IMG/VR virus record: IMGVR_UViG_3300005573_000058
Location: 64,001 to 128,000 of that record
Source of the DNA: a virus
Strand: one strand, 5' to 3'
Length of the DNA: 64,000 nt
A program made the position numbers and the translations under genes. Every line of letters starts with the position of its first letter. Position 1 is the stretch's first letter. Shown piece after piece: positions 11,353 to 46,837 of this stretch. The notes under the pieces are model-generated. The model was not told the DNA's origin. It did no database searches and worked only from the letters and a program-made list of their open reading frames with translations.

Positions 11353-11387
11353 AAAGAAACCTTTATGGTTTCTTTTTTACTGCAGCA

Positions 11388-12055: not shown

Positions 12056-12062
12056 TATATCC

Positions 12063-12210
12063 ACCCCGCCGCATCAGCCATTCATAGTAGCAGGCGGCGG
12101 GGTTTGCTCTTTAAAAGTGCAACAGATGTATATATAGAAGATCTTATATCTGTTTATACATCTGTTGCATTTGTTGATCGGTTTTTTAAAAAATAAAAAA
12201 GGAGGTATAT
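12063..12210 (+). repeat. Cassette leader module, copy 7 (no leader hairpin)
   Basis: GC hairpin, long hairpin, GGTTTTTTAAAAAA and SD. Confidence 0.85.
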
Positions 12211-12384
12211 ATGAAACATGTTACAAAAGTTGTATTGTTTGTAGCTTTTGGTGCAATTGTTGTAGCCTTGTTCTGCAGCAAATGGTTATTGAAAGGCCTT
12301 GTATGGACTAACAGAAAGTTAAATCAATTGATAAATAAAAACAAGGCCTACACCAAAAGTTATAAAAATAATAATCAGCCTTAG
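12211..12384 (+). CDS. Small membrane protein (57 aa, below the ORF track cutoff)
   Basis: MKHVTKVVLFVAFGAIVVALFCSKWLL..., strong SD. Confidence 0.7.
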   Translation: MKHVTKVVLFVAFGAIVVALFCSKWLLKGLVWTNRKLNQLINKNKAYTKSYKNNNQP

Positions 12385-12391
12385 CAACAAC

Positions 12392-12564
12392 GCCCGCCGC
12401 CATAGAGTTTCACAGTAGCAGGCGGCGGGCTGTTACTGAGCATTAAAAAGGCTGATTGCTACAGTTATGTAGCTGTTTGTGTATCGGTTTTTAAAAAATA
12501 AAGAGCAGTAACATGGTGTTACTGCTCTAAACCTGCAGCTATATGCTGCAAAAAAGGAGGTTGT
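12392..12564 (+). repeat. Cassette leader module, copy 8 (type X, divergent middle hairpin)
   Basis: GC hairpin and downstream elements conserved. Confidence 0.85.
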
Positions 12565-12996
12565 ATGAATTTTAATTTTAATTTTAACAAGTTATTTAAG
12601 AAATTTACTGGATCGAAAGCTACAAGAATAAAATTCGATCCAGAGAAAGTTGTTGTTTCTGTAAATGAAGTTAATGCAGATAAGAAGACTGTTGCTACAA
12701 TAATAGAGGTAGCAACTGAAACGTACAAGCAATTTCCAGCAAAGGATGTTGTAACAAAGAAAACCGGTGATCTATATATATCCAGCCAGAATCCAAAAGG
12801 AAAAAGCTCATATGCTGATCTTGTTAGCAGAAATGTAATAGGTGCATATAGATTAGGATGGATATATGCGAAAGATGGTAAAAATATAATCTGGAAGGCA
12901 AAGTACTTCCTTCGCGCAAATCGGAAGGAAGGTAATTTCCAACTCGAGATCTATCAACCGAATTCTATGATAAAAGGTATCGACGACAGGAAGTGA
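12565..12996 (+). CDS. Hypothetical cassette protein, paralog of 6822-7199
   Basis: Clear full-length similarity. Confidence 0.85.
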   Translation: MNFNFNFNKLFKKFTGSKATRIKFDPEKVVVSVNEVNADKKTVATIIEVATETYKQFPAKDVVTKKTGDLYISSQNPKGKSSYADLVSRNVIGAYRLGWIYAKDGKNIIWKAKYFLRANRKEGNFQLEIYQPNSMIKGIDDRK

Positions 12997-23523: not shown

Positions 23524-23535
23524 GCAAAAGTTACA

Positions 23536-23571
23536 AGAAGACCATAGACTCGTTCTATGGTCTTCTTTTTT
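23536..23571 (+). terminator. Rho-independent terminator
   Basis: AGAAGACCATAGA/TCTATGGTCTTCT stem plus T run. Confidence 0.8.
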
Positions 23572-23593
23572 GATAAGTATAAATAATTGTATA

Positions 23594-23830
23594 TCAATGG
23601 AAATTGATAAGCTATATGATGCCAAATTAAGCATTAACTACATTTACATTCCGTTAATGCTTTCACTGGCATCATATATGCAGAAGTGAATAACTTCTGA
23701 AAAAAAATTTTTAAATTGAGATACAAGATTCAATGGAAATTGAAAGTTATCGAAACAGTTTATTTTATTCCGCACATTTCATGTGCTTGTAAAATAAACT
23801 GTTTCAGAAGTGAACAGCTTCTGAAAAAAA
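23594..23830 (+). repeat. Two-unit structured repeat (constant hairpin, variable long hairpin, constant hairpin)
   Basis: TCAATGGAAATTGA at 23594 and 23730; CAGAAGTGAAYARCTTCTG plus A tract at 23681 and 23805. Confidence 0.75.
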
Positions 23831-23856
23831 TGTATATTTATTAAAAGGAGGTATAT

Positions 23857-24099
23857 ATGAAAGGAGACATGAAGAAGTCTGTATATGTAGATTATGATGA
23901 AGAAGCTAAAATGTATTATATCAGGGTCGTACATAGTTATAAAATAGAGCGTCCTCAGGAAAGACTAGGTAAGAAGATCAATAAGCCTGATTGGAGACAG
24001 ATAAATAAGATTGTAAAAGTTATGCAAGAATTTTGGAACGTACAGCAGTATTTAGCTGATATTTATAAAAGTAAAGAAAAATGTACAGGGGAGGAATAA
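23857..24099 (+). CDS. Hypothetical protein
   Basis: ORF with SD. Confidence 0.7.
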   Translation: MKGDMKKSVYVDYDEEAKMYYIRVVHSYKIERPQERLGKKINKPDWRQINKIVKVMQEFWNVQQYLADIYKSKEKCTGEE

Positions 24100-24163: not shown

Positions 24164-25321
24164 ATGAGTAATAAAACAATTCAAAGTAATGATTTATTAG
24201 TTTTGTCGCCAAAAGGTATAAAAGAGTTGGTAAGTTATTTTGTAAAGGCTGATATTCCTATATTGATCTGGGGTCAAACAGGAGTTGGTAAAACTCAGAT
24301 AGTAAAACAGATCGCACAAGAGAATGGTTATGATATGTTAGCGTTGTATCTAAATCAAGCTGATACATTAGGTGATTTATTAGGATTGCCGTATGTGAAT
24401 GCTGAAAAAGGTATAACTGAATTTTTACCGCCGCCAATAATTAAAGCAGCTGAACATGCTGAAAAGCCAACTATTTTATTCTTAGATGAGATAAACAGAT
24501 GTAGGAAAGAATTTAGAAATGCTATATATAGGTTAGTTCAGGAGAGAGTATTAGATCAGAGGAAGTTAAATGTCAGAATAGTAGCTGCTGCGAATCCATC
24601 GACAGATAAATATTTTGATACAGAAGAATTTGATGAAGCATTTCTAAATAGATTTGCACATGTTGGTATGAAATCTGATCTAACTGATTGGAAAGAATTT
24701 GCACATAGGAGAGGAGTCCATCCAACTGTTATTTCTTTTGCAAGTGAGTCAACAGCTTTTAGCAACGATCCTATAACATTTTCTAAGATAGTAACGCCAA
24801 GAGATCTTATTGAGAGTTTATCTAAGATTGTAAACATTATAGAAAATGATAAAGAACTTACTGAAGACGATAAATATAGGTTAATCGAGGAATCAGCAAA
24901 AGCGATATTAGGAATAGGTAAAGGTATTGCTTATACAAAAATGTATAAAGATTTGGAAAAGCCAATTCAGCCAGATGAATGGTTGCTGTCATCTAAAGAG
25001 AATCTTTCTAATAAGCTGAATGAACTTATCAGCAAAGGTCAAACTGATATAGTTATTAGTTCAGTCTATAATATTGCAAGAATTGATGCAAAGAAGATAA
25101 ATGATACATCAGCTAAGAAGATAATTAATGTATTATTAGAACAAACAGCTGAGATTATTGTTAATGCTATTATGATTTTGCCAGAAGTTGGACAAGATGT
25201 ATATCAGAAGATTTTAGAGTTAGCTCCAAATGAAGCAAGAAAGTTAGTAAGTGTTTATACGGAAAAAATGGATTTATTTAATAAACAAACTAAGAATGCG
25301 AATGGGAAAAGTAAAAGTTAA
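24164..25321 (+). CDS. MoxR-like AAA+ ATPase
   Basis: WGQTGVGKT, LFLDEINR, AANP, AFLNRF. Confidence 0.9.
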   Translation: MSNKTIQSNDLLVLSPKGIKELVSYFVKADIPILIWGQTGVGKTQIVKQIAQENGYDMLALYLNQADTLGDLLGLPYVNAEKGITEFLPPPIIKAAEHAEKPTILFLDEINRCRKEFRNAIYRLVQERVLDQRKLNVRIVAAANPSTDKYFDTEEFDEAFLNRFAHVGMKSDLTDWKEFAHRRGVHPTVISFASESTAFSNDPITFSKIVTPRDLIESLSKIVNIIENDKELTEDDKYRLIEESAKAILGIGKGIAYTKMYKDLEKPIQPDEWLLSSKENLSNKLNELISKGQTDIVISSVYNIARIDAKKINDTSAKKIINVLLEQTAEIIVNAIMILPEVGQDVYQKILELAPNEARKLVSVYTEKMDLFNKQTKNANGKSKS

Positions 25322-25546: not shown

Positions 25547-27487
25547 ATGAGTCTAAAAGATGAACTCCAAAGAGTAAGAATGGCATCATTGTCAGATGAA
25601 GATTGGTTAGGAATATTCATATTAGAGTTTGCAAAAAGATATGAGTTTTATGGACATCTTGTGTATCAGTTTAGAAGAAGATTAGTTGATCAGAAGATAT
25701 CATATATGGGTACGCCGTTGTTTATGCAGATTGAGATGCCACTTGGAAGTTCAACATTGATAGATAGAAAATTTGTTGATGCAACTTTAGTATCATGTAT
25801 TGAAAATATGAAAACACTGCCTTTTAATCAGGTGATTGGAATTTTGCATCATGAGATATTACATTTTACTAATATGCATTCAATAAGAGGGTTAAATATT
25901 GCGAAACAAATAGCAAAAGAGGTAGGAGTATTAGATCCAAAAGAGTTATATGATAATCCTGTATTTACAGCAATTTTGAATATTGCTGCAGATGCATCTA
26001 TTAATGAATATGTTAGGGAATTTGACGAATACAGAGATGGTATAGTTACGATATCTTCTATCAACAAAGAATATAAACTGAAGTTAAGTCCTGGAGCATC
26101 TTTTGAAGAGATATTCTTCTCTTTATATAAATTTGAAAAAGATAAGATAAAGAAAGCGCAGAAAAGTATTCATGAAATAAGGAAAGTTATACAACAGATT
26201 AATCAGAAGATACAGCAAGCATCTCAGAATAGAAATAAGCAGATAAAGCAGATAACAGAGAAGCTAAAGAAAGAAGCAGGTGAGTATAATAGTAAAGCTA
26301 ATAGCCAACAGAGTCAACAGTTGAAAGATCAGGCAGATAGTATAGATCAGAAATCTGATGAGATGAAAGATGCTGAGAGTAAAGGAGATAATAGAAAGCA
26401 GCAGCAAGTAGAAGATGAAATGAAGAAAATGGCAGGTCAAATGAAAGAGCAGATAGATGAAACAGAACAACAACAGCAGGAAGAAGAAGGAAAAGATAAC
26501 CTCAATAGAATGAAAGATTTAATTAAACAGTTAGAAGACATGTTAAATGGTCAGCAACAAAATCAACAGCAAAATCAGCAACAAAATCAACAACATGAAC
26601 AGGAAGAAGGTAACGATGAAGATCAAAGTGATCAACAGAATAATAGCAGTTTAAAAGATTTGATAAATCAGCTGGAGAAAAACTTTAGCAATCAGCTGAA
26701 AGAGTTAAGAAAGCTATTATCAACACCAATAGCTTTAGCTGATGAGAAAGATAAAGATAATATAGAACAGATGACAAAAGCAAAGATATATAATGCATAT
26801 AAACAGACATCAGATAAAGGTAGAGGATCTATTCCATCGGACGTGTTAGAGATCATAGAAAGTATTGAAAAGCCAGTAAGTATACCTCTTCATCAGTTCT
26901 TAAGAAGAATAGCAAATAGTTATGCTAAACAGAATAGGACATTGTCGTTCAGGAGATATGATAAAAGATATGGTACAGTGCCTGGTGATATAGTTAGTAA
27001 TAAAGAGACTGTCGCATTTATATTAGATGTATCTGGTTCAATGTCAAATGAATTGTTAGCAGAGGGTGTTGCATTTTTGAATACTATATCGAAAGATTAT
27101 GAAACTATTATGTGTCAGATTGATACTGAACTAAAATTAGATCGGATAAAAATACTAAATAGAAGAGTAGATAAACTAGAAGTCGAAGGCAGAGGCGGAA
27201 CAGATTTTAACGATTTATTCAGATTAATGAAAGGTGAAGAACTGGAACAACATGAGATAAAGTATTATAAGTTGTTGAAAAGAGCTGCAACTGTGTTCAT
27301 ATTTACTGATACAAATGCTAGTATAGATACTAGAAGATATAATCAAAAAGAGATAAAACAATCTGTTGTATTTATAACTGATAGTAAATATATATACAAT
27401 GAAGTATTAGATTTTGGTGGTGTAGTTATAAAATATGATAAAAATAATAAGATATATGAAGTAATAAGAGGAGGCATATATGAATAA
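25547..27487 (+). CDS. Metallopeptidase-like (HEXXH) plus vWA domain protein, MoxR partner
   Basis: HHEILH, NIAADASIN, Q/N-rich linker, DVSGS MIDAS motif, GRGGTDF. Confidence 0.85.
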   Translation: MSLKDELQRVRMASLSDEDWLGIFILEFAKRYEFYGHLVYQFRRRLVDQKISYMGTPLFMQIEMPLGSSTLIDRKFVDATLVSCIENMKTLPFNQVIGILHHEILHFTNMHSIRGLNIAKQIAKEVGVLDPKELYDNPVFTAILNIAADASINEYVREFDEYRDGIVTISSINKEYKLKLSPGASFEEIFFSLYKFEKDKIKKAQKSIHEIRKVIQQINQKIQQASQNRNKQIKQITEKLKKEAGEYNSKANSQQSQQLKDQADSIDQKSDEMKDAESKGDNRKQQQVEDEMKKMAGQMKEQIDETEQQQQEEEGKDNLNRMKDLIKQLEDMLNGQQQNQQQNQQQNQQHEQEEGNDEDQSDQQNNSSLKDLINQLEKNFSNQLKELRKLLSTPIALADEKDKDNIEQMTKAKIYNAYKQTSDKGRGSIPSDVLEIIESIEKPVSIPLHQFLRRIANSYAKQNRTLSFRRYDKRYGTVPGDIVSNKETVAFILDVSGSMSNELLAEGVAFLNTISKDYETIMCQIDTELKLDRIKILNRRVDKLEVEGRGGTDFNDLFRLMKGEELEQHEIKYYKLLKRAATVFIFTDTNASIDTRRYNQKEIKQSVVFITDSKYIYNEVLDFGGVVIKYDKNNKIYEVIRGGIYE

Positions 27488-27944
27488 AAATGTAATAATT
27501 GCCTATGTAGATGGATCTTGGTCATCTAAAAATCCTGATATATCAGGATATGGTGTTGTCATTACTGATGTCAATAACAATGTAATTTATGTAGATAAAG
27601 GTTATATTACAGGAGATGCTACAGTAATGAGACAAGTAGCTGGGGAAGTAGAATCAGTTGTAAGAGCTGTTGATTATGCAATAAAGAATAAATATAGTAA
27701 GATTGTTATTAAGTATGATTATGAAGGAGTAAGAAGTTGGGTTACAGGTGACTGGGAAACAAGGAATGAGTGGACAAGAAGATATTCAGAATGGATGGAT
27801 GATGCGAAGAAAAAAGTGCTGATCAAATTTGAAAAAATAGAATCAAAAGATAATGTAGCAGATATAATGGCAAGAGCATATACGAAAGCAGGAGATGTTC
27901 ATAATAGTGAGAGTAAGTTAAAGAAGGAATTTGATTTAAGATAA
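27480..27944 (+). CDS. Ribonuclease HI (stand-alone paralog of the N-terminal domain of 2805-5396)
   Basis: YVDGSW, RQVAGE, YDYEG, NVAD, HNSES. Confidence 0.9.
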   Translation: MNKNVIIAYVDGSWSSKNPDISGYGVVITDVNNNVIYVDKGYITGDATVMRQVAGEVESVVRAVDYAIKNKYSKIVIKYDYEGVRSWVTGDWETRNEWTRRYSEWMDDAKKKVLIKFEKIESKDNVADIMARAYTKAGDVHNSESKLKKEFDLR

Positions 27945-27982: not shown

Positions 27983-28471
27983 ATGAATAGATTTCCAGTT
28001 TGTGCTGCTTTTTATTATGTTATAGCTAAAAGATTAGGATATAAAGAAGATGAAGCGAAGAGTTTAGGATTAGCAAGAGCAATATTTTTTGCAGCAGCAA
28101 AGACAGGATTTAAAAAAGGAACAGGGAAAGTTACAGGTTATGTTAGTTCAGATAAAAAGACAACGAAATCTAATATTGTACCAAAACAGATCATGTTTGC
28201 AGGTCTTTATACGACAGTAGTAGAAAAGAACGGCGAGTTAAGAGCTGTTGTAGGAAAAGTTATTGATCCTAAGCAGTTTGATAGATCAGTTATAAAGTCA
28301 AAGTTTAATCTTATATCACCTAAATCATTTGACTATTTTTGTGCAAAGGTAAATGATCTTATATCAGACTATACAAATGAAGAGTTGAATAATAGTAAGT
28401 TAGCTTATAGTTTATATCAGAGGATAAGAGATGAATACAGAAGTGATGAGTTTTACAAAGAGGTAAAATGA
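27983..28471 (+). CDS. Hypothetical protein
   Basis: ORF with SD. Confidence 0.8.
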   Translation: MNRFPVCAAFYYVIAKRLGYKEDEAKSLGLARAIFFAAAKTGFKKGTGKVTGYVSSDKKTTKSNIVPKQIMFAGLYTTVVEKNGELRAVVGKVIDPKQFDRSVIKSKFNLISPKSFDYFCAKVNDLISDYTNEELNNSKLAYSLYQRIRDEYRSDEFYKEVK

Positions 28472-29028
28472 TATATCCAATGAGTCCTGTTCCATTACTA
28501 AATCCTAAACTATTAGGCGATGTAAGAAGATATTGGCTGAACTATAAATATGATGGCTGGAGATTAATAGTAGATAAAGGTAAATTTTTTTCTAGAAGGG
28601 GGAACGAGCTGAAAGGATGGATAGGACTTGATAGATTTAAAGATCTAGGTTATGAATATCCTCTTGATTGTGAGCTCATGACGTTGGATATGAAAAGAAC
28701 ATCTATACCATCTGTTAAAAATCAAGATGTAGCTGTTCTTATTATATTGGATGTAATAGTAGAAGATGTTCCTATAGAAGATAGAATATCATTATTTCCA
28801 TCTATCTATAATAACTGTAGATATAAACATTGTGAATTTTATAGTATTGAAAATGTGGACGATATAAATAGGTATTTAGAACAGGCTATAAGAACAGGAT
28901 ACTGTGATGGCATTGTATTAAAAAAGAAAAACAGCTTATATTATCCTGGAAGGGAAGAGCAGATTATGAGCGTTGATTGGATAAAGGTAAAAGAGAGAAT
29001 AAAAGAAAATAAAAAGGAGGTCATATGA
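28468..29028 (+). CDS. ATP-dependent ligase, adenylation domain only
   Basis: KYDGWR (motif I), DCEL, DGIVLK, WIKVK; ends with no OB domain. Confidence 0.8.
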   Translation: MIYPMSPVPLLNPKLLGDVRRYWLNYKYDGWRLIVDKGKFFSRRGNELKGWIGLDRFKDLGYEYPLDCELMTLDMKRTSIPSVKNQDVAVLIILDVIVEDVPIEDRISLFPSIYNNCRYKHCEFYSIENVDDINRYLEQAIRTGYCDGIVLKKKNSLYYPGREEQIMSVDWIKVKERIKENKKEVI

Positions 29029-29393
29029 ATGGTGATATATTATTGTCAACTTTAACAAACGTAGCTGTTAAAAGGATATCTGATGAAATGTATGAAGTTA
29101 TAGTTGATGAGTTAGATAGACATAATGATAAAATAGCTGTATATGTGAAGTTTGTATATGGTAAGATAATATTAACAGACGACGAATATTATTATTATGA
29201 TATAATATCATGTCACGATTCATTTGATGTTCGACAGGAGGTTTTATCTATAATAAGTAAATATAATGTAAAATTAATTAGGAATGAACTGGTTATGGAG
29301 ACAAATGAGAAGAACTTAAAAGAAGATTTTATAAACTATGTAAAAGCAATAAAAGCGTTGAATACTTATTTTGATACATATAAGAAAGTATAA
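29025..29393 (+). CDS. DUF1828-like protein
   Basis: LDRHND.I.VYV...ILTDD pattern. Confidence 0.55.
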   Translation: MNGDILLSTLTNVAVKRISDEMYEVIVDELDRHNDKIAVYVKFVYGKIILTDDEYYYYDIISCHDSFDVRQEVLSIISKYNVKLIRNELVMETNEKNLKEDFINYVKAIKALNTYFDTYKKV

Positions 29394-29725: not shown

Positions 29726-29739
29726 AAAGGAGGTTGAAA

Positions 29740-31899
29740 ATGGATAAAAGTATTTTAGCAACATATGTATATACGTTATATACATCGTTGAAAAACTCTA
29801 TAGAAAAATTATATAGTAGTAGTCCGCAAATTAAAAAAGATATTCTTACAAATAGATATTTTATGCCAGATTACAAAAATGAGTATGTTAAAGAATTTAT
29901 AAAAAAGAAAAGGACAGGTGGTATAAGAAGAATATATGAGCCATCAGGAGAGTTGAAAGAAGTTTTAGTTAATTTTGATTTATTTATGAAGTCTATATGG
30001 CTGTTTGATAATAATTATAATTATGTTATAATGAGGAAGGACGATGAAGAAGATGATGTAACAAGTTATATAGAGAAGTACAAGTATATTAAATATAAAA
30101 ATAATACAGCATTTATATTATCAACAAGAGGATCTAGTGTAGCAGGATTTGAAAAGATGATAGAAGATTACTTTTTATCTAAAAATCCAGATGATTATTT
30201 GATCATTAAAACAGATGTGAAAGATTTTTTTACATCTGTAAGATATGATGTGATGGCAAATATATTCAAAACAGTATATAGTGATTTATATAATAATTTT
30301 AGTGAGTTGACAGCTCAAATAGGTATTACGCCTTTAGAAGATTTCTTAAGTGTAATATCAGATGCTTTGGCATTATCGTTTTATAAAGGATCGTTACCGC
30401 AAGGTTTTCCGACATCTCCGTTGTTATCATATTATTATATAATAGGTAATAAGCTTTTATGTAGTGAAACTTTTTCTTTAAAACTGGCAAAGCTTTCTGC
30501 TAGAGATAAAGATAAATATAACAGAGATGACAGTTTTTATATCTGCAATAAAATACCTATTAGTTTGACAACAAGACAAAAGTTAGACTATATAATAGAT
30601 ACTATCTGTACTAAAAAGGCTGATCTGAACAAAGAGATAATAAAGGTAAGAATAGAAGATATAGTTACAAGATATGCATCTGATATATTTTTAAATGTAA
30701 TATTACAATATCCAATAAATAAGTTAGTTCATTTAAAAAAGGATCCTAAAGCAGATACTAATAGACTTAGTTGTACATTTTCTATAGTAAACTATGTCGA
30801 TGATGTTCTATTTATTATGAATAATGTGTTGATTAGAGAAGTCAGAAAATGGCAATCAAGAAAGGAATATATGAAAGCGCTTTCAGGAGATATAAAGAAT
30901 AGTATTGGTATAGGATTAGATAGAGATTTAGTTAATATGGTATATAGTGCAATTATGTATAAATTAACTGATGTATTAATGTATTTCTATTTTAATCCTG
31001 TAGATGTCCTGAATAAGAAATCTCTATCTAGACCTATGGTAATAAATAGTTATAAAATAAATGCAACAGTAAATGTCTTGTCATATCCTGAGATAGCAGA
31101 TTTGTTTTTAAAATGTTTTGTTAAGGTAAAAGAGAAATATGATAATACAACTGATACGAATGAGAAGAATGTATATCTAAGTCTTTTGTATAGATTCTTG
31201 TTGATAGATGAACTTTATGTCAGCTTATATGATGCAGAAAGTATACTGCAAGAATATAATTTCTTAAAATATAGCGATTTATATAAGCAATATAAAGAGA
31301 AGTATTTAGCACTATCTGATTTTTATCCTGAGTTGGACAAGTCGATATATTTAGATAAGTCTACTGGAACAGTAGAAAAATTAGCAAAAGAGCTGGAGGA
31401 TATGCTTTATAAAGATGATATAGATGCATATATGATTAGAATAATTGGACTGGATAAGATTGGACAGGTTATTAAGTTATATGGTAATTCATATGTAAAA
31501 GAAGAAAATGGAATATTGTATTATGATGGTGTACCAGCATTCAGTCATAGAAAAACTAGAGTTATGTTCTTTAAAACGTTGAAGAAAGTATTAGGTATGA
31601 TATGGATGAAGAATGGTAAATTATCTCCAGCAAAGTATAAATCGTACAGAGAGCAGATATTTCAGATTTTGAAAAAAATTAAAGAAAAGCCCTTGACAAA
31701 ACAGGAAATTAATATTATAATTAAGATGGACGTAAAAGATTATATAAAACAGATAGATGGTTATTTTTCTTATGCAGAAGAGTTGAAATCAGTAAGTGAT
31801 AGGAGAGCGTTTAAGGAATTTAAAGATATGTATAACAAATTCAAAGAATATGTTGCTAGTTTAGAAGAAGTAGAACAAAAACAAGGAGGTAGTATATGA
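29740..31899 (+). CDS. Reverse transcriptase, retron-like core with two large insertions
   Basis: KKRTGGIRRIYEP, KTDVKDFFTSV, LPQGFPTSPLLS, YVDD, KTR...VLG. Confidence 0.88.
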   Translation: MDKSILATYVYTLYTSLKNSIEKLYSSSPQIKKDILTNRYFMPDYKNEYVKEFIKKKRTGGIRRIYEPSGELKEVLVNFDLFMKSIWLFDNNYNYVIMRKDDEEDDVTSYIEKYKYIKYKNNTAFILSTRGSSVAGFEKMIEDYFLSKNPDDYLIIKTDVKDFFTSVRYDVMANIFKTVYSDLYNNFSELTAQIGITPLEDFLSVISDALALSFYKGSLPQGFPTSPLLSYYYIIGNKLLCSETFSLKLAKLSARDKDKYNRDDSFYICNKIPISLTTRQKLDYIIDTICTKKADLNKEIIKVRIEDIVTRYASDIFLNVILQYPINKLVHLKKDPKADTNRLSCTFSIVNYVDDVLFIMNNVLIREVRKWQSRKEYMKALSGDIKNSIGIGLDRDLVNMVYSAIMYKLTDVLMYFYFNPVDVLNKKSLSRPMVINSYKINATVNVLSYPEIADLFLKCFVKVKEKYDNTTDTNEKNVYLSLLYRFLLIDELYVSLYDAESILQEYNFLKYSDLYKQYKEKYLALSDFYPELDKSIYLDKSTGTVEKLAKELEDMLYKDDIDAYMIRIIGLDKIGQVIKLYGNSYVKEENGILYYDGVPAFSHRKTRVMFFKTLKKVLGMIWMKNGKLSPAKYKSYREQIFQILKKIKEKPLTKQEINIIIKMDVKDYIKQIDGYFSYAEELKSVSDRRAFKEFKDMYNKFKEYVASLEEVEQKQGGSI
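31693..31721 (+). promoter_or_regulatory. Consensus sigma70-type promoter inside the RT 3' end
   Basis: TTGACA-N17-TATAAT. Confidence 0.7.
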
Positions 31900-32120: not shown

Positions 32121-32269
32121 TACTATTCAAAAAGGAGGTAGTAATGGTTAATGTAATAGTATATTTTGTAACAATTATTGTTGTTATTGCTGCTGATTAT
32201 ATGTTGCAGAGATATATGGAATATAGAAGAAATAGATTTGTTATTAATGAGCCATAGTTAGGAGTTGTT

Positions 32270-33139
32270 ATGCCTAATTGGTGCGAAGATTATTTGACAA
32301 TAATAACAGAGAGAAAAAATAAAGAAAGAGTAGATGATATTTTTAGAAGTATATATAATCTGGAAGAAGTATTTGAAGGAACAAAAGATATATCAGATGT
32401 GTTAAAATTGCAGAAGTTTAAATTGCTGAATAAAAAGCGGCTGAGAAGTATCAGATCATCTATATTGAACGAAAGAGTTGTTATAGATAAAAATATATTA
32501 ACTGAAGATAAATGGATACGGATCAATTATGATAATATCAGAGATGAGATCTTTAGTTTTGTTGGTAGTATAAGAAGTAAAGAATATAAGAATTATCTTA
32601 ATGTAAATGCTACAGAAAGTAATGTGAAAGAAGTGTACGAGGTAAAAGGAGTTTCGTATATAGGTATGAAAATTACGATAGCAGTTGATAGAAAATTAGA
32701 AAACTTTTATAAAGAAATTGACGATCCGATATCAGCAACTGTAACCTTTCAATCGGCATGGTCAGCACCAACTAGTTTTTTCAGTCATATTTGTGATATA
32801 TTTAAACGTCATAAGAAAAATGCTCATATTATACTTCGAACGTTTGAGCCTGGAATGGGATTTTCTGAAAGGTTAGATGTACGCTTATCTACTAATATGT
32901 CAGTTATATATGTTTCGACATTGTTGGAAGCAACAGAATGTCCTTCCTGTCATGAAATGTTTTCTAAACTTACTACAATGGTAACAGGATATTTGGAAGT
33001 TTTAGATAGGTGTCCAAGATGTGGCTGTCCACTTGATAATTTCTCATTTGATTATAATGATACTGTTTTGTCGAAACTGTTAAATAGAATAGATAATTAT
33101 ATAAGTATGAAATATGAAATAAAAAGAGGTGGAAAATGA
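32270..33139 (+). CDS. DUF1281/YubB-like protein with C-terminal Zn ribbon
   Basis: MPNWC.., F.SAWS.P, EPGMGF; CPSC and CPRC. Confidence 0.65.
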   Translation: MPNWCEDYLTIITERKNKERVDDIFRSIYNLEEVFEGTKDISDVLKLQKFKLLNKKRLRSIRSSILNERVVIDKNILTEDKWIRINYDNIRDEIFSFVGSIRSKEYKNYLNVNATESNVKEVYEVKGVSYIGMKITIAVDRKLENFYKEIDDPISATVTFQSAWSAPTSFFSHICDIFKRHKKNAHIILRTFEPGMGFSERLDVRLSTNMSVIYVSTLLEATECPSCHEMFSKLTTMVTGYLEVLDRCPRCGCPLDNFSFDYNDTVLSKLLNRIDNYISMKYEIKRGGK

Positions 33140-34131
33140 AAATAGCATTGTATTCAGATGTACATTTGAAACTTGATGTTGGTAAGCAATATGTTGAAAG
33201 GTTAGAAGAGTTAGAGCAGTTTTATAAATATTTAGAGAAGAACGATGTTAAAAAGATATTCTTTTTAGGCGATTTGTTTCAAAGAAAGTATATATTAGAA
33301 GATGTTTTGATCCATTATGTATCTAAGTTTTTTGCATCTAAGAATATAGAGACTTACTTCTTGGTAGGTAATCATGATAAAGGTATAAATGATATAAATT
33401 TAATGTCGTTTTTGATATTAAAAGATATATATCATATAATTGATGAATATCAGTATGTTGATATTGATAATGTTAGATTACATCTACTACCATGGAAGAG
33501 AGAATTTCCTGATCTAGGTATGGTAGAAATGTCGAATTCTAAAAAGAATTTTCTGTTAATGCATTTTTATCCAAGATGTGTAGTAGAATATGATAATATA
33601 AAGTATGTTATCAGTTCGTCTAAAAAAGATAGTTTTGATATGAATGCTGTTAAAGATTTTGATAAAGTTGTAACAGGTCATCTACATTATCCGTTTATAA
33701 AAGATAATTTGATTGTAGTAGGTTGTTTATTTCCAACATCTTTCGCTGAGACATTTGATACAAAATTTATTGTAATGGATACTGAGACTGTAACTGTTGA
33801 GAATGTATCAACATCATCAGTTGTTGATTATCCAAAGTACGTAACGCTAGATGTAAAAGATGTTGATATAAATAATATAAAAGAAAGTAAAAACTATTAT
33901 AGAATAATATACAATGATGTAAAAGATATTGAAAGAATAAGGTCGAAAGTGAATATTGACAGAATACAGTTCGTCTATGAAAAAGTGAGAAGATATGATG
34001 ATAATAATGAACTTGTGTCTTTCGATCTTGATCTATTATCATTGTTTAAAACGTTCATTGACGATAAAGTGGAAGATAGTGAGAAAGAGAAGATGATAGA
34101 AAGATTTAAAGATTTTGAAAAAAGGAGGTAA
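33136..34131 (+). CDS. sbcD: SbcD/Mre11-like metallophosphoesterase nuclease
   Basis: SDVH, GDLF, GNHD, GHLH. Confidence 0.85.
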   Translation: MKIALYSDVHLKLDVGKQYVERLEELEQFYKYLEKNDVKKIFFLGDLFQRKYILEDVLIHYVSKFFASKNIETYFLVGNHDKGINDINLMSFLILKDIYHIIDEYQYVDIDNVRLHLLPWKREFPDLGMVEMSNSKKNFLLMHFYPRCVVEYDNIKYVISSSKKDSFDMNAVKDFDKVVTGHLHYPFIKDNLIVVGCLFPTSFAETFDTKFIVMDTETVTVENVSTSSVVDYPKYVTLDVKDVDINNIKESKNYYRIIYNDVKDIERIRSKVNIDRIQFVYEKVRRYDDNNELVSFDLDLLSLFKTFIDDKVEDSEKEKMIERFKDFEKRR

Positions 34132-37143: not shown

Positions 37144-37554
37144 ATGGAGTTACAATTATTAAGAGTAAGACAGCCTAATGAGGCATTAAAGAAGACAGGA
37201 ACTGTAGCATTATTAGATGTTATGTTATTGGAGAAAAAAGATAGTATAACAATTCCTATAATGCGATTAAATTCGGTTATAGTAAAGCAATCGTTGAAAC
37301 GGCCAGGAACATATTATGTTTCGGATGGAGTATTAATGAGAGGTAAAGGTGGAGTATTGAAAAGTAAACAGGGTAGTAATTTATATTCAGTTAAATTTTT
37401 CAGATACTTTACAAACAGTATACTTAAGCTATATGGAGAATATTTAAAAGTATATAATTTATCACCAGAAGAACCTAAAATATTAGATTCTAATAAAGGT
37501 ATTATAACAGTATCAACAGAAGAAGATGAAGTAAAAGAGAGCAGAGCAAAATGA
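37144..37554 (+). CDS. Probable paralog of the preceding SpoVG-like protein
   Basis: M...LL.VR....V...DV...P....; F......I..LY. Confidence 0.45.
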   Translation: MELQLLRVRQPNEALKKTGTVALLDVMLLEKKDSITIPIMRLNSVIVKQSLKRPGTYYVSDGVLMRGKGGVLKSKQGSNLYSVKFFRYFTNSILKLYGEYLKVYNLSPEEPKILDSNKGIITVSTEEDEVKESRAK

Positions 37555-39128
37555 AAATAAAATCAATATCTGCTAGTAATTTCTCTTGTTTAAGTAAAGT
37601 AATGATACAACTAGAACATTTACCAGAAGTATTACTGATTGTTGGTAAAAACGGAACAGGAAAATCAAGTCTATTCGATATAATCTATTTTACATTAACT
37701 GGAAGATCTCTGAAGACAGTTAATATAGATAAGCTTGTTAAAAGAGGTACAAATGAAATGGAGACCGAAATTGAATTTGAGTATAACAAGAGAGTCTATA
37801 AGATAAAACGTATAAGAAAGAACAAGAAAACTGAATTGGATCTTTCAATTGATGGTAAGAATGTTGAAGCAGACATTAACAAGATGCAACAAATAATAGC
37901 TGATATTATAGATGCATTCATGATAGAGACATTTATGATATATTCAGGCAGGTCGAAAATGTTCTTCGACCTGCCTGAAAGGAGTCAAAAATTAGCATTA
38001 ACAAAATTATTTGCAAAAGATTTAGATATAGATGATGTATATGCTAAAGTGTCGTCTATATCTAACGATGTTCAAACTAAGATAAGTGAGATCCAAGCAT
38101 CTATATCTGAGATAAATAGAAGTCTTGTTGATACTAAAAATTTAAAGAATACTAGAGTAAAGTATAATTTAGAAGAGTTAAATGAATATGAAGAAGAATA
38201 TAACAGTAGAAAGAAAGAATTACAACAGAAAGTAGATAAAATAGAAGGAGATATAGATAATATCAGAGTAACTATAGCAAGTAATAATAACGAGATTAAA
38301 ATGCTGAAAGATAGAATAAAAATTTATAGTGAATTGATAAAACAAGGTAGATGCTATGTATGCAAATCGAAGATAGGTGATGTTACAAAAGATAAATTAC
38401 AGAAAGATATCTTAGAGTTAACATCTAAAGTTACAATCATGCAAAAAGATGTTGAAAAGCTGAATAAGAGATTGCAAAAATTGCAACAGGTGCTAAATGA
38501 TACAGAAGCTAAAATAGGTGGTATTGAAAAGAAGTTAAGTAAAATATCGGAATATAAAACTATTATAAAATCTGATATATCCGATAAATTAATTGCTAAT
38601 CTTATCAATAAAAAAAGAAATCTTGAACAACAATTAGAACGTTATAATGAAGATATGAAATTTTTCCTATTGTTAAAACAGTTCTATTCAAGTAAAGGTC
38701 TATTATCTATGTTAAGTAACATGTTCTATGATGCATTGAATGTGTATGCTAAAAAGTATATAAATTATATTAATATTGATCTTGAAATAAAAGATAACAT
38801 ACAAGTTTTATATAATGGATTAGAATATAATATGTTATCGTCAGGTGAAAAAAGAATAGTTGATTTTATAATAATGTTAGCATGTGCTGATATAGCACAT
38901 GCTAGATTAGGGATGAATGTACTTGTATTAGATGAAATATTTGATGCATTAGACTTTATGAATGTTGAAAAAGTGTATAATATGTTACTATTATGTAATG
39001 TTCCAAAAAAGATACTTGTTACTCATCATAGTGTAAATATAAATGCTCCTAATATATTTGATATGAATAGTTTAAGTCTGAACAGCATAGATAGTTCGTT
39101 TTCTGATTATATAAAAGTTGAAAAATAA
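37551..39128 (+). CDS. sbcC: SbcC/Rad50-like ATPase
   Basis: GKNGTGKSS, coiled coil with CYVC hook, LSSGE, LDEIFD. Confidence 0.9.
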   Translation: MKIKSISASNFSCLSKVMIQLEHLPEVLLIVGKNGTGKSSLFDIIYFTLTGRSLKTVNIDKLVKRGTNEMETEIEFEYNKRVYKIKRIRKNKKTELDLSIDGKNVEADINKMQQIIADIIDAFMIETFMIYSGRSKMFFDLPERSQKLALTKLFAKDLDIDDVYAKVSSISNDVQTKISEIQASISEINRSLVDTKNLKNTRVKYNLEELNEYEEEYNSRKKELQQKVDKIEGDIDNIRVTIASNNNEIKMLKDRIKIYSELIKQGRCYVCKSKIGDVTKDKLQKDILELTSKVTIMQKDVEKLNKRLQKLQQVLNDTEAKIGGIEKKLSKISEYKTIIKSDISDKLIANLINKKRNLEQQLERYNEDMKFFLLLKQFYSSKGLLSMLSNMFYDALNVYAKKYINYINIDLEIKDNIQVLYNGLEYNMLSSGEKRIVDFIIMLACADIAHARLGMNVLVLDEIFDALDFMNVEKVYNMLLLCNVPKKILVTHHSVNINAPNIFDMNSLSLNSIDSSFSDYIKVEK

Positions 39129-42283: not shown

Positions 42284-42391
42284 TATATTACTAAACAAGG
42301 GAGGTAATTATGGTTGAAAAATTAGTAGTAAAAAAAGATGTTGGTTATAATTGGTTACGGTATTGCAATCTTACTTATAAGGAGTTACTTA

Positions 42392-45300
42392 ATGGATAGA
42401 ATGGTAAAAAAACGTAATGGTCATATAGTTCAATTTGAAAGATCTAAAATTTTTACAACTATTAAAAACGCATTTGCAAGTATAAATCATCCTATATCAG
42501 ATGATAAAATAGATGAAATTGTAAATAATATTGAAATTGAATTACATAAAAGATTTTTTAAAAAAGGTAGTATACCATCAGTTGAAGAAATACAAGATAT
42601 AGTAGAACATATATTAATGAAAAAGAACTATACTGATGTTGCAAAGTCTTATATTTTATATAGACAACAACGAAAGGAGAATAGAGAATTAAAGAACTTA
42701 TTTAAAGGAGTTGAAAATATTGTAGATGATTATATATCAGAAAGTGATTGGAAAGTTAAAGAAAATGCAAATATAATATTCTCAGTTCAAGGACTTAATA
42801 ATTATATATCGTCTGCTATAGCATCTAAGTATTGGTTGAACAAAATATATCCTGAAGAAATAAAAGAAGCTCATGAAAATGGTGATATATATATTCATGA
42901 TCTTGGAACTATCGGATCATATACGTTCTTTGGAAAAGAAGTAGTAATAGCCAAGTTAAATGGAGATATTAAACTCCTTTCTCTTGAGGATCTTTATGAA
43001 GAAATTCCAGAGCCTGAAATTCTTCTAAATGAAAAAGATGAAGCTTTTGCAAAATATCCGAAAGAGTTTTTTGTTTTGGATAGAAACGAATGGACGAAAG
43101 TTTTGAGAATGGTAAGAAAGAGAAAAGATAGAGAAATGAGATTTATTAAATCAGAGCAGGGTCAAGGTGTAATTGTTACTGATAATCATCCTTTTATTGT
43201 TAAAGAAAAACCTGATGCATTAGAAAGAGAAATTGAGGCAAAAGGAGTTCAAGTAAAAAATCATTTAATTTTGAGTTGTCATATTCCTTCTCTTTTAGTT
43301 AGTGAAAAATTATTTTTCAAAAAACATATTTACTTAGCAGAAGAGCTTTTAAAAAGAAATTATGAAAACTTTTTTCTCGAAGGGTTCTATTGGAAAGATT
43401 TTATGGAAAATTGGGGAGGATCTTTAAGAGTTGAAGGAACTTTCAGCACTTCAAATAGCGCTAATAGCTTAGACAATAAATTAGAACTTACTGAAGATCT
43501 TGGATATTTAGTTGGATTTTTTATAGCTGAAGGTAATTACGATAGCTGGAAATTAAATATTACTAATAGTGAAGAAGAGATAATTGAAAAAATTCAAAGA
43601 ATCTGTGCCCGCTTAGGAATAAGAACTTATGTGAGAGAAAAGGAAGGTAAAACAAAGACTATTTCAATTAATTCGAGTACTTTAAAGATTGTTTTTGAAA
43701 AAATTTTTCAAATAAAACCATTAAGTAAAAATAAAAATTTACCTTACGATATTTTAACTTATAATTCCGATTTTATAAAAGGGTTGATTGCAGGAATTAT
43801 TGATGGGGATGGAAGTATTAGTGGAGAAACTCAAATTATAATTCGAGTAGCTTCTAGAACGATGCTTGAGCAGATTGCAATTTTACTCCAATTTTTGGGA
43901 ATTGTTCCTCGAACTGGAGTTTCCATCAAAGATATAGGAAAGAAAAGAAATTTTAGGGGAAAAGAAATTGTTCAAAATTATCCTCTTTATAGGCTTACTT
44001 TTTCTAAAAAAGAAAACGTGGATTTTCCATCTTTGAAATATCAAAAAGCAAAACCTGCTAAAACACATTGGAGATCAGAAAATTACGGATGGAATAGAGT
44101 ATTAAATAACGAAGCTACAACTATTCCTGACAAGTTTATTTACGACATTACTACTGAATCTAATACATTTTTATGTAATTCCATTTTAGTTCACAATTGT
44201 ACAGGATGGGATCTTGAAGATTTACTAAGAAAAGGATTTGGAGGAGTTCAAGGTAAAATATCATCTGCTCCTCCTAAGCATTTTAGAACTGCTCTAGGTC
44301 AGTTAGTAAATTTTTTATTTTCTGTTCAGATGGAAGTAGCAGGAGCTGTTGCTGTATCTAATTTTAATACATTGTTAGCTCCTTTTATAAAATATGATAA
44401 GTTAGATAGAGTTCAAGTGAAACAAGCATTACAAGAATTTGTATATAATATGAATGTATCTACTAGATCAGGTGGACAATCTCCTTTTTCTAATGTCACA
44501 TTAGATCTTGAAATACCTGAACATTTTAAAGGTAAAAAAGTTATTATAGCTGGTAAGGAACAAGATGCTACATATGATGAATTTGAAAATGAAATGAACT
44601 TATTTATTGATGTTTTTACAGAGGTTTTAACTGAAGGTGATTACAATAAAAGAATATTTACTTTTCCTATACCTACTATAGCAATAACAAAAACTCTTAA
44701 CTGGAATAATCCAGCATATGAAAATATATGGAAAGCAACAGCTAAATATGGTTATTTTTATTTTGCTAATTATGTAAATTCAGATATGAAACCAGAAGAT
44801 ATACGTTCGATGTGTTTTACAGCTGATACTCGATTAATTTATAAGGAGGGAAAGCACAGTCGATATCAAAGGACAACAATTAGAAATTTGGTAAATAATT
44901 GGAATCCAAAAAAGGAATTTTATCTTCTAATAAATGGGAAGTGGGTAAAAATTATCGATGCATTCAAATTAAAAAATAATTCAGGGAAGATTATCAAAGT
45001 TGAGTTAAGGAATGGAGAAATAATTAAAATGACACCTGACCATCCAGCAATGATAATTGAAAATGGAAAATTGAAACAAGTTTTAGCAAAAAATTTAAAA
45101 GTGGGAGATTTTATTCCAATAGCCAAAAATACTTATGAGGGTAGATTGGGAGATTTTGAACTGGGAAGGTGGTTAGGTTTATATGTTTCCGAAGGAGGGA
45201 TTAATAAAAATGAGATCTATTTTTCCTTTAATAAAAATGAAAAGGAATTACAAGAATTTGTAAAAAAAGTAGCCGAAGAGAGATTTGCTTTTCCAGTAAG

Positions 45301-46837
45301 AGTTACGAAAGATCCAAGGTGGGATACAATTCAGGTTTGGGTAAAAAGTAAATCGGCAGTTGAATGGGTAAGAAAATTCTGTTCTGGAGAAAAAGCTCCA
45401 CGAAAAAGATTGTTAGCCTCTTTATATGGAATGTCAAAAGATTTTAGATTAGGAGTTTTAGTAGGAATATACCAAGGTGACGGCTATGAAAGGGATGTAG
45501 AATTTCATACCACAAATAGGAAATTGAGAGATGATGTCGCAGATTTGGCTAGAAGCATAGGAATTAACTACACGAAAAGAATTAACCCGAATAACACTAA
45601 AGGTGAAAAAAATTACACTTCTTATGTATTAAGACTTTGCCGAGATAGCCTAAAAGAGTTAGCGCCTTATTTTAAAAATATAAAAATATCAAATTCTTCA
45701 ATTTTCAGAGATTTTGGTGATTTTTATGGAATAAAAATTAAATCAATTAAAGTTCAAAATTACTATGCTTCTGTTTATGATTTCGAAGTAGACTCAAAAG
45801 AGCATCTTTTTCAACTATCTAATGGGGTTATTACCCATAATTGTTGTAGATTATCATTGAATATGAAAGAGTTACGTAAGAGGACTGGAGGAGTTTTTGG
45901 AGCAGGAAATTTAAGTGGAAGTTGCGGGATTGTTACAATTAATTTACCAAGATTAGGCTATGTTTCAAAAGATGAGAATGAATTTTTCTCCAGATTGGAT
46001 CATTTACTTGAACTAGCTAAAACATCATTAGAAATAAAAAGAAAAACTGTTGAACAGCTAACTGAAAAGAATTTTTATCCTTATTGTAAAGTTTATCTTG
46101 AACCTGTTAAACAAACAACTAATCGATATTGGTCTAATCATTTTTCAACTATAGGAATCATAGGGTTAAATGAATGTTCTCTTAACTTTTTGGGCGTAGG
46201 TATTGAACAGAAAGAAGGTCATGATTTCGCCCAAAAAGTATTATTGCATATAAGAGAAAAAATAGCACAATTTCAAGAAGAAACTGGAAATTTATACAAT
46301 CTTGAGGCTGTTCCTGGTGAAGGTTCTTCTTATTCATTAGCTTTAAAGGATAAAAAACGCTTTCCAAGAATAAAAACACAAGGTACAGATACTGCTCCAT
46401 ATTATACGAATGGAACAGGACCTGCTCTTTCAACCAATCTAGACATATTTGATTATGTTAGAATTCAAGATGACTTGATATCATTATTGACAGGTGGAGG
46501 TGTTGTTCATCTATTTTTAGGTGAAAATATAAATGATTGGCAAATGGCAAAGGAATTAGTTAAAAAAGTTACATCAATGTTCAAAGTTCCATATTTAAGT
46601 ATTACTCCTAGTTTCTCAATATGCCCAGTTCATGGTTATATACCAGGTGTTCACAAGTATTGTCCTTATCCACATACGGAGGAAGATATTAGTAAATATG
46701 GTATTGAAATAGAAGTTACAAAGAATGATTTATCTGGTATGCCTGGAGGTAGTTATGCTATAATAAATAAAGATGAACAAAGTAATAAAGAACAGGAGAA
46801 AAAGATAGATTTGAAATTGTTTAAAAAGGAGGTATGA
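42392..46837 (+). CDS. nrdD: Class III anaerobic ribonucleotide reductase (ATP cone, two inteins, no glycyl-radical C-terminus)
   Basis: KKRNG ATP cone, IHDL..SY|CTGW, RSM|CCRL, NLPR, EAVPGE, FSICPVHG. Confidence 0.92.
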   Translation: MDRMVKKRNGHIVQFERSKIFTTIKNAFASINHPISDDKIDEIVNNIEIELHKRFFKKGSIPSVEEIQDIVEHILMKKNYTDVAKSYILYRQQRKENRELKNLFKGVENIVDDYISESDWKVKENANIIFSVQGLNNYISSAIASKYWLNKIYPEEIKEAHENGDIYIHDLGTIGSYTFFGKEVVIAKLNGDIKLLSLEDLYEEIPEPEILLNEKDEAFAKYPKEFFVLDRNEWTKVLRMVRKRKDREMRFIKSEQGQGVIVTDNHPFIVKEKPDALEREIEAKGVQVKNHLILSCHIPSLLVSEKLFFKKHIYLAEELLKRNYENFFLEGFYWKDFMENWGGSLRVEGTFSTSNSANSLDNKLELTEDLGYLVGFFIAEGNYDSWKLNITNSEEEIIEKIQRICARLGIRTYVREKEGKTKTISINSSTLKIVFEKIFQIKPLSKNKNLPYDILTYNSDFIKGLIAGIIDGDGSISGETQIIIRVASRTMLEQIAILLQFLGIVPRTGVSIKDIGKKRNFRGKEIVQNYPLYRLTFSKKENVDFPSLKYQKAKPAKTHWRSENYGWNRVLNNEATTIPDKFIYDITTESNTFLCNSILVHNCTGWDLEDLLRKGFGGVQGKISSAPPKHFRTALGQLVNFLFSVQMEVAGAVAVSNFNTLLAPFIKYDKLDRVQVKQALQEFVYNMNVSTRSGGQSPFSNVTLDLEIPEHFKGKKVIIAGKEQDATYDEFENEMNLFIDVFTEVLTEGDYNKRIFTFPIPTIAITKTLNWNNPAYENIWKATAKYGYFYFANYVNSDMKPEDIRSMCFTADTRLIYKEGKHSRYQRTTIRNLVNNWNPKKEFYLLINGKWVKIIDAFKLKNNSGKIIKVELRNGEIIKMTPDHPAMIIENGKLKQVLAKNLKVGDFIPIAKNTYEGRLGDFELGRWLGLYVSEGGINKNEIYFSFNKNEKELQEFVKKVAEERFAFPVRVTKDPRWDTIQVWVKSKSAVEWVRKFCSGEKAPRKRLLASLYGMSKDFRLGVLVGIYQGDGYERDVEFHTTNRKLRDDVADLARSIGINYTKRINPNNTKGEKNYTSYVLRLCRDSLKELAPYFKNIKISNSSIFRDFGDFYGIKIKSIKVQNYYASVYDFEVDSKEHLFQLSNGVITHNCCRLSLNMKELRKRTGGVFGAGNLSGSCGIVTINLPRLGYVSKDENEFFSRLDHLLELAKTSLEIKRKTVEQLTEKNFYPYCKVYLEPVKQTTNRYWSNHFSTIGIIGLNECSLNFLGVGIEQKEGHDFAQKVLLHIREKIAQFQEETGNLYNLEAVPGEGSSYSLALKDKKRFPRIKTQGTDTAPYYTNGTGPALSTNLDIFDYVRIQDDLISLLTGGGVVHLFLGENINDWQMAKELVKKVTSMFKVPYLSITPSFSICPVHGYIPGVHKYCPYPHTEEDISKYGIEIEVTKNDLSGMPGGSYAIINKDEQSNKEQEKKIDLKLFKKEV
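42923..44197 (+). mobile_element. Intein 1 (425 aa) with LAGLIDADG homing endonuclease; first residue Thr
   Basis: TFFGKE start, TDNH block B, GFFIAEG and GIIDGDG, LVHN|C end. Confidence 0.88.
44813..45841 (+). mobile_element. Intein 2 (343 aa) with LAGLIDADG homing endonuclease
   Basis: CFTADT start, TPDH, GLYVSEG and GIYQGDG, ITHN|C end. Confidence 0.92.

Follow-up and report, generated by a model that had tools for sequence, protein, structure and literature searches.

What is a reverse transcriptase (RT) gene doing within the replication operon of a large phage, with no recognisable partner element beside it? This question is raised by a 719-amino-acid (aa) protein, P0002, encoded at positions 29740..31899 (+ strand) of the window analysed here, i.e. 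the 64,000 nucleotides (nt) that form bases 64001-128000 of the 138,661-bp IMG/VR record IMGVR_UViG_3300005573_000058 (CheckV completeness 80%). The analysis revealed that P0002 is a real, constrained, retron-derived RT homologue, which carries large inserts in its palm domain, resides in a conserved phage gene order and lacks partner elements in cis. The reading that we favour, with a rough probability of one half for the whole package, is that the protein would be an active polymerase that uses a YVDD motif and a template supplied in trans, and that it serves phage DNA metabolism.

The reading frame of the gene is open over positions 29734..31899, and translation probably begins with the ATG at 29740, located 5 nt past a strong ribosome-binding site (RBS; AAAGGAGG, 29727-29734). 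The upstream open reading frame (ORF) has its stop at 29725, i.e. 14 nt from the start of the RT gene, and the stop codon of the latter overlaps the ATG of the next ORF. A retron msr-msd region therefore has no room upstream, as was claimed in the original prediction, and the packing is tight on the downstream side too. The GC content of the RT gene matches that of its neighbours (0.27-0.29).

A phmmer search of 1.84 billion cluster representatives returned P0002 itself and one other cluster, represented by P0003 (621 aa, E 1.3e-16), referred to below as the sister protein. Word-based searches of 5.8 billion proteins recovered only P0002, a core-region search of shorter proteins returned nothing, GenBank phage records contained neither a protein nor a DNA match, and no relative was detected in IMG/VR by scans with the family alignment, P0003 or the motif-B pattern. 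Scanning of JGI metagenome contigs with the same pattern yielded three contigs (L002-L004) with P0003-like genes. A scan of genome contigs for LPQGFPTSPL gave five loci, and the one RT found among them was an ordinary retron-type gene of a Saccharibacteria metagenome-assembled genome. No account of a comparable RT was found in full-text literature searches; related groups may be listed in supplementary files.

Sequence inspection revealed RT motifs 1-4 and 6-7 in colinear order, among them the Asp of motif A, the QG of motif B and a YxDD, namely YVDD, whose place in the palm is putative. Motifs 1-2, KKKRTGGIRRIYEP (29902..29943, residues 55-68), contain R63, which is near-invariant in comparison with retron-type RTs. 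Motif A, LIIKTDVKDFFTS (30199..30237, residues 154-166), includes the DFF box; the catalytic residue D159, which lies within TDVKDFFTS, is invariant in all 72 aligned RTs. Motif B, YKGSLPQGFPTSPLLSYY (30382..30435, residues 215-232), is the longest run identical with the sister lineage, and the PQG of its LPQGFPTSPLLS box occupies residues 220-222. Motifs 6/7, SHRKTRVMFFKTLKKVLGMIW (31543..31605, residues 602-622), read RKTR...VLG at residues 604-619, with KT at 605-606 (K605 is conserved) and VLG at 617-619, where retrons carry VTG. They are followed by the thumb and a C-terminal helical region (31606..31896, residues 623-719), which aligns to the retron model described below up to its position 312, and to positions 219-297 of the PADLOC model RT_II-A. 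The motifs and positions listed in the original prediction were all confirmed, with the correction that the motif written KK.GG is in fact KK..GG.

Comparison with RT models placed the protein close to retrons, albeit at a considerable distance from each model. The top PADLOC matches of P0002 were retron RT models (RT_III-A, 3e-10; RT_XIII, 1e-9; RT_II-A, 4e-9), none of them exceeding 38 bits; the RT_II-A match spans residues 604-700, against the end of that model. A 'polymerase' family was matched in PHROGs at 4e-6. The family profile, compared with the sequences of PDB entries, matched retron RTs alone, and weakly (Kva2, 3.5e-4; Ec86, ~2e-3; Ec78, 0.06). A hidden Markov model (HMM) was built from 27 retron-type RTs of Bacteroidota and Patescibacteria genomes, and this retron HMM aligned with residues 36-78, 154-232 and 602-703 of P0002, three stretches in colinear order (total E 3.5e-20). 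Alignment of the family with 39 retron-type RTs using hhalign gave a probability of 98.5% (E 2.5e-15), while hmmalign left the C-terminal half unplaced. The non-retron exceptions among the PADLOC and NCBIfam matches were (i) a CRISPR-linked RT model, (ii) a generic RT model and (iii) one group II match of the sister protein. The NCBIfam model NF038233 (retron_St85_RT) scored 41.4 bits against a cut-off of 235, i.e. P0002 does not reach the curated retron cut-off. The Pfam family RVT_1 gave 15.4 bits in a six-frame search, which is under the cut-off (this was the sole RVT_1 match in the record), and 22.3 bits with P0003, where the cut-off is 29.6.

The phylogenetic check proposed with the original prediction was run as a quick IQ-TREE analysis, which gave a retron-type clade. 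P0002 and P0003, both long-branched, joined each other (SH-aLRT, Shimodaira-Hasegawa-like approximate likelihood ratio test, 94), and the pair was placed, without resolution of its position within them, among the 51 retron-type rows (SH-aLRT 96), apart from the group II RTs (SH-aLRT 99 and 96) and from the DRT2 outgroup. An AlphaFold model, computed from a 43-sequence alignment seeded with retron sequences, had a confident core and reached a predicted template modelling score (pTM) of 0.60 and a mean predicted local distance difference test value (pLDDT) of 62. The core of this model was most similar to the retron Eco2 RT (Z 17.6 over 313 residues, root-mean-square deviation 4.3), followed by Ec83, Eco7 and Ec78, and then by group II RTs; since retron sequences had seeded the model, this fold match is partly circular.

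Several points weigh against the placement of the protein. In the Pfam search, P0002 was unmatched by RVT_1 at E<=1. The tree, which comprised 72 RTs and 318 columns, contains long branches and was built with DGR (diversity-generating retroelement), Abi and class 1 UG sequences left out. As judged from these sequence comparisons, the gene is a strongly derived retron-type RT. The original prediction of a possibly new RT class was not borne out in that form, because the significant HMM, PDB-sequence and fold matches, as well as the quick tree, are all of retron type. Nevertheless, P0002 does not fall within a characterised clade that shares its inserts, since it belongs to one of only two clusters among the 1.84 billion and its scores lie far under the curated cut-offs. 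A family so nearly absent from public data has probably been missed by RT surveys.

The retron RTs Eco2/Ec67, Ec83, Eco7/Ec78 and Ec86, which provide the best HMM, PDB-sequence and fold matches and fall into the same clade of the quick tree, share with P0002 the DxxDFFxS, LPQGxPTSP and KT...G motifs and an aligning thumb. In contrast, P0002 is much longer (719 aa versus ~300-430 aa), owing to inserts of ~95 aa between motifs B and C, ~220 aa between motifs C and 6/7, and 40 aa before motif A. It also differs in having VLG in place of VTG and in scoring far under the curated cut-off (41 versus 235 bits), and its gene lacks both an msr-msd beside it and a recognised effector; moreover, this gene belongs to the core of a phage replication operon and not to a defence island. 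The retron-type RTs found on other phage contigs in IMG/VR (L082-L103) are also phage-encoded, in some cases by genomes of 178-195 kb, and carry LPQGxPTSPL; with the sister set aside, the row nearest to P0002 by tree path is one of them (L093). Unlike P0002, they are 308-426 aa in length, with 35-61 aa between PQG and YxDD, and match the retron HMM at 1e-37 to 1e-83, as compared with 3.5e-20. At least 13 such canonical-size retron-type RT genes were observed on other IMG/VR contigs, and in one of these (L095) ~1.9 kb without a long ORF precedes the RT.

The UG/Abi/DRT enzymes (AbiK, DRT2, DRT9) resemble P0002 in being RTs outside the classical retroelements, and some of them work untemplated or protein-primed, protein priming being one of the options raised in the original prediction. 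However, their fold matches to the P0002 model were weaker (DRT2, Z 13.1; AbiA, Z 12.1; DRT9, Z 11.9), and DRT2 formed the separate outgroup clade of the tree. None of the Drt/Abi models of PADLOC and NCBIfam matched P0002 or P0003 at E<=1, whereas a control retron-type RT did touch the Drt2 and Drt5 models.

The length of P0002 reflects two large inserts in the palm, for which the original prediction gave gaps of about 130 and 250 aa where a few tens of residues are normal. These values were confirmed: PQG and YVDD are separated by 132 aa, and YVDD and KT by 253 aa, as compared with 35-61 aa (median 35) and 35-49 aa (median 36), respectively, in 13 phage-borne retron-type RTs of IMG/VR. The corresponding medians for 28 bacterial retron-type RTs, obtained from a regular-expression count that includes outliers, were 35 and 35.5. 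Insert 1 (30445..30774, residues ~236-345) separates motifs B and C, and insert 2 (30853..31494, residues ~372-585) separates motif C from motifs 6/7. In the sister protein the two spacings are 170 and 148 aa. In both P0002 and P0003, the stretch from motif A to motif B is also longer, by ~20 residues, while an insert of ~40 aa located past motif 2 and before motif A (30010..30129, residues ~91-130; low pLDDT) is private to P0002.

Neither a family nor a fold was detected for insert 1, and the inserts had no match among Pfam, PHROG or Atlas families. ESM Atlas look-ups with the whole protein and with the inserts returned only RT leads, or hits with scores below 0.9 and TM below 0.5. According to the AlphaFold model, the inserts, insert 2 included, are mostly helical and of low confidence, with the exception of a helical pair at ~451-480 (pLDDT 67-82). 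P0003 has its own inserts at the same two places (~130 and ~115 aa), which cannot be aligned with those of P0002; the central regions of the two proteins showed no significant likeness (Smith-Waterman score 53, shuffles 44 +/- 8). That the central 300-370 residues of P0002 and P0003 cannot be aligned weighs against the scheme that we favour.

An RNA embedded in the RT ORF was considered at 30895-31052, within insert 2, where a 158-nt fold with a long stem was predicted (-38.5 kcal/mol, z -3.46) and a 27-nt inverted repeat is present (matched by 2 of 100 shuffles). This candidate was rejected because similar z-scores occur elsewhere in the folding scan: of its 243 windows, two were at or below z -3.46 (-4.25 and -3.49) and more were near -3, so that about 1% are comparable nearby. 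The lowest value of the scan, which covered 24-33.7 kb, was that at 28600-28760 (z -4.25), within the ligase gene.

Two sites in P0002 compete for the role of motif C, namely YVDD (30793..30804, residues 352-355) and, within insert 1, TRYASDIF (30667..30690, residues 310-317), a degenerate look-alike that resembles the retron consensus and occurs in this protein only. If TRYASD were the true motif C, the catalytic site would be dead, because the first catalytic Asp is Ser in P0002 and the sister carries FSAS or FSAN at this place. P0002 would then be an RT-fold protein whose ancestral motif C has decayed and which acts as a nucleic-acid-binding or scaffold subunit of the replication-recombination machinery, with YVDD as a non-catalytic part of an insert. 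A number of observations speak for this and thus against an active enzyme. In MAFFT alignments of 28, 43 and 72 sequences, TRYASD (Y312-A313-S314-D315) was placed on the column of the retron YADD. In the AlphaFold model, it forms the palm hairpin (strands 303-312 and 315-322; pLDDT ~83), while YVDD lies in a helix with pLDDT ~30. In the sister, SKFSAS is found 34 aa past PQG, which is the canonical distance, and the site varies among close relatives (FSAS versus FSAN). Finally, the local similarity of P0002 and P0003 around YVDD is weakly significant, as 15 of 500 shuffles reached its score.

The placement of motif C by AlphaFold is, however, not independent evidence, because the model follows its input alignment; when the five family sequences were used as input, no confident model was obtained (pLDDT 38). 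Of the structural check proposed with the original prediction, this leaves the mostly helical, low-confidence inserts, whereas TRYASD entered the palm only by way of the input alignment. At the motif C column of two MAFFT alignments, the sister carries SKFSAS or SKFSAN and no YxDD, which speaks for YVDD; using E-INS-i, the YVDD of the sister, and not its FSAS, was placed on the DD column. YVDD is exactly retained at 26% identity and is the sole YxDD common to both lineages, in which it has hydrophobic flanks and is followed by REV or KEV. With a position-specific scoring matrix of retron motif C, YVDD was the top-scoring window of both proteins; its scores of 6.6 and 3.4 bits exceeded the 99th and the 95th percentile of shuffle maxima, respectively, and TRYASD scored 0.2 bits. 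YVDD was also aligned with YADD by hhalign. Moreover, motifs A and B, which bind the nucleotide, are the most conserved stretches of the protein, and this suggests that catalysis has been retained.

On this mixed evidence, YVDD is the likely motif C and TRYASD appears to be a lineage-specific look-alike; a catalytically dead protein is, in our opinion, unlikely. The second catalytic-like motif of the original prediction is thus indeed present, although its catalytic interpretation fits poorly with a sister that lacks TRYASD and with the better agreement of YVDD with motif C. An origin of the two sites by tandem duplication of the motif-C hairpin was considered but found no support, since 187 of 1000 shuffles scored as high as TRYASD against YVDD.

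The other question raised by the locus concerns the template. Analysis of the whole record with Rfam identified a tRNA-Glu only, with neither group II intron RNA nor any retron RNA family. Self-BLAST of the record detected no TR/VR-like (template/variable) repeat near the RT (29-32 kb); the repeats found elsewhere were a pair of RNase H paralogues (499 bp, 71%), cassette copies at 7-12.6 kb and tandem arrays. Neither Cas1, nor a tyrosine integrase, nor a second RVT_1 match was detected in the 138,661 bp. The GIIM domain was absent in the Pfam search of P0002, and TIGR04416 did not match this protein. The absence of a group II intron, a TR/VR pair and cas1, stated in the original prediction, therefore extends to the complete record, and no template is visible in cis in this phage, with 14 nt upstream of the gene, an overlapping ORF downstream and no Rfam family. 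The description of the phage as lytic is in accordance with the lack of an integrase, although this is its sole basis and the record is 80% complete.

For these reasons we regard it as highly improbable that P0002 is the RT of a DGR, a group II intron or a CRISPR system whose partner elements were overlooked. A CRISPR-acquisition RT model of PADLOC did match weakly (1.5e-5), as did a group II model with the sister (16.7 bits against a cut-off of 300); however, TR/VR-like repeats, Rfam intron RNA, GIIM and Cas1 are all lacking, and the tree splits the P0002-P0003 pair from group II RTs with the support given above.

Another alternative is a phage-borne conflict system of retron type. In such a case, an RNA overlapping the coding sequence or encoded elsewhere would be copied by the RT into a small cDNA for superinfection exclusion or counter-defence, and its position among replication genes would be incidental. 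This is compatible with the closest relatives being retron RTs, known in defence, with the presence of retron-type RTs on 13-16 other IMG/VR contigs (several of 178-195 kb), and with the match of a neighbouring DUF1828 protein to PDC-M24B (7e-14). It is also compatible with the non-coding leader of 124 nt found directly upstream of the sister RT gene (L004:1109-1232; also in L002 and L003). The predicted fold of this leader contains small inner hairpins and is closed by a stem of 10 bp, with a G past the 5' arm (z -2.2; equalled by 3 of 200 shuffles), a layout that may resemble the retron a1/a2 stem. The leader is ~7% divergent, as compared with a synonymous-site divergence (dS) of 0.35, and may be a regulatory or a template RNA.

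In the phage of the window, however, there is no room for msr-msd, and a retron msr-msd with flanking inverted repeats was not found beside the RT; nor was there a match to Rfam retron families. With a covariance model of the sister leader, the 138.7-kb record gave no match (best E 0.8). VTG, given as the retron RT motif 7 signature in a part of PMC8632793, is absent: P0002 has VLG and the sister has FLG. PADLOC analysis of nine neighbours revealed no known retron effector, the match of the DUF1828 protein being to a candidate. In addition, the RT diverges in step with the syntenic core genes, unlike a mobile accessory gene. A conflict system is accordingly a possible but improbable alternative to an enzyme serving phage DNA metabolism.

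The in-step divergence was observed in the comparison with the sister contigs. The gene order shared with L002-L004 comprises a MoxR-type AAA ATPase, a DUF2201 metallopeptidase-vWA protein, SbcD, the RT, two small ORFs, SbcC, a Clp-like ATPase and two more genes. Identities between the two lineages are 25-48% for the shared neighbours, 26-31% for those parts of the RT that can be aligned and 26% for the whole RT; given the common synteny and these similar identities, the RT appears to have been passed down with the module and not to be a recent acquisition. P0003 agrees with P0002 in motif order, YVDD and the sites of the inserts as well as in the synteny of MoxR, vWA-peptidase, SbcD and SbcC, and differs from it in the unalignable sequence of the inserts, in the absence of TRYASD and in the structured leader.

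Among variants of the sister gene, the ratio of nonsynonymous to synonymous divergence (dN/dS) was 0.12 overall and 0.10-0.13 in the inserts, which indicates that the sister RT is constrained throughout, inserts included. Two DNA sequencing runs labelled hot springs metagenome, one of which may be the source of this DNA, carry the locus of the window (joints in the run contigs with sides of 21-25 nt were disregarded). The contigs of both runs are identical over the RT, so this locus offers no variation for a selection test.

In the window, the RT gene is part of an operon, all genes of which mentioned here lie on the + strand. The genes for the MoxR-type AAA ATPase (24164-25321) and the DUF2201 metallopeptidase-vWA protein (25547-27487), both of which have syntenic counterparts in the sister lineage, are followed by those for RNase H (27480-27944), a protein without assigned function (27983-28471) and a minimal ATP-dependent DNA ligase (28468-29028). 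Downstream of the RT gene are the genes for an SbcD-like nuclease (33136..34131), which adjoins the RT in the sister lineage, and an SbcC-like ATPase (37551..39128), syntenic in both lineages. MoxR and the vWA-peptidase form a known phage chaperone pair according to a part of PMC7824862. The operon is headed by a strong terminator (23535-23567), and a single weak terminator-like site follows on the + strand at 36322. The phage itself has only distant relatives among isolates: the family B DNA polymerase that it encodes is 23% identical to gp43 of a cyanophage.

The favoured reading is as follows. The RT would be a vertically inherited component of the replication-recombination operon in a rare clade of large AT-rich phages. 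It retains the fingers and a thumb of retron type, along with motif A (D159, DFF), motif B (LPQGFPTSP) and motifs 6/7 (KT...VLG), and since its palm appears to be split by two large, lineage-variable, mostly helical inserts, the catalytic hairpin would be the displaced YVDD at 352-355. Made during infection alongside the products of the MoxR/vWA, RNase H, ligase and SbcCD genes, the enzyme, a predicted DNA polymerase, may copy into DNA an RNA encoded away from its gene (a phage transcript or another trans template). The DNA product would serve replication or recombination of the phage, and the system would not be a classical retron with multicopy single-stranded DNA and an effector.

Several observations weigh against such a role. 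Gene context is what links the RT to replication, and homologues of the RNase H and ligase genes were not found on the sister contigs L002 and L004. An RT-like ORF was present at none of the 16 other IMG/VR loci with SbcD relatives, and no RNA sequencing run was listed with the locus. The adjacency of RNase H and ligase was also considered as a 'retro-copying toolkit', and this was rejected, as such neighbours are expected of any replication module.

A more far-reaching version is that a dsDNA phage clade of the hot-spring runs has made a retron-derived RT a standing part of its replication-recombination machinery. The inserts would dock SbcCD, MoxR or a trans RNA (possibly a phage transcript), and the DNA made from RNA would be used for replication initiation, break repair or end maintenance. 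We consider this version quite doubtful. Phage RTs are known to act in tropism switching (DGRs), in intron mobility and in prophage-borne defence, and a standing role in replication would, if true, add a biological function that is new for the RTs of tailed phages. In view of the hot springs metagenome label of both runs, the enzyme, if active, could also serve as a source of thermostable RT. An RT that is kept by descent within the replication-recombination operon of a large phage, with no template in cis and with a split palm, points either to reverse transcription being put to a new use in the DNA metabolism of phages or to a new pseudo-polymerase.

Some minor observations were made in the course of the analysis. 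The DUF1828 protein mentioned above is encoded two genes upstream of the RT (29025-29393) and matches, besides PDC-M24B of PADLOC (E 7e-14), PHROG 5059. The 421-aa ORF located after SbcD has no detectable relation to the 610-aa ORF that follows the sister RT. The apparent gap of 150 nt at 32121-32269, past the operon partner of the RT, contains, as read from the sequence, an RBS-led ORF of 37 aa (32145-32258) with a hydrophobic N-terminus. A perfect sigma-70 consensus (TTGACA, 17 nt, TATAAT) occurs at 31693-31721, within the 3' end of the RT gene, although the promoter scan of the region was uninformative (96 sites versus 92.8 expected from shuffles). A two-unit hairpin region (23570-23857) was considered as a partner of the RT and rejected, since no link to the RT could be demonstrated; its GNRA hairpin motif occurs in two exact copies, there only.

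The RNase H gene (27435-27930) is a 71%-identical, 499-bp paralogue of 2812-3301, the 5' part of an ORF of 863 aa (2805-5396), whose first 200 residues match a PHROG RNase H family. Between the small genes at 7000-12600 there are many copies of an intergenic cassette, 70-85% identical to one another. A tandem repeat array is located at 132550-133040 of the genome, near the end of the record and outside the window. Finally, an NrdD-like anaerobic ribonucleotide reductase ORF (42338-46837; 1499 aa) displays family matches split between residues 22-815 and 1169-1434, which suggests the presence of an intein or another large insertion.

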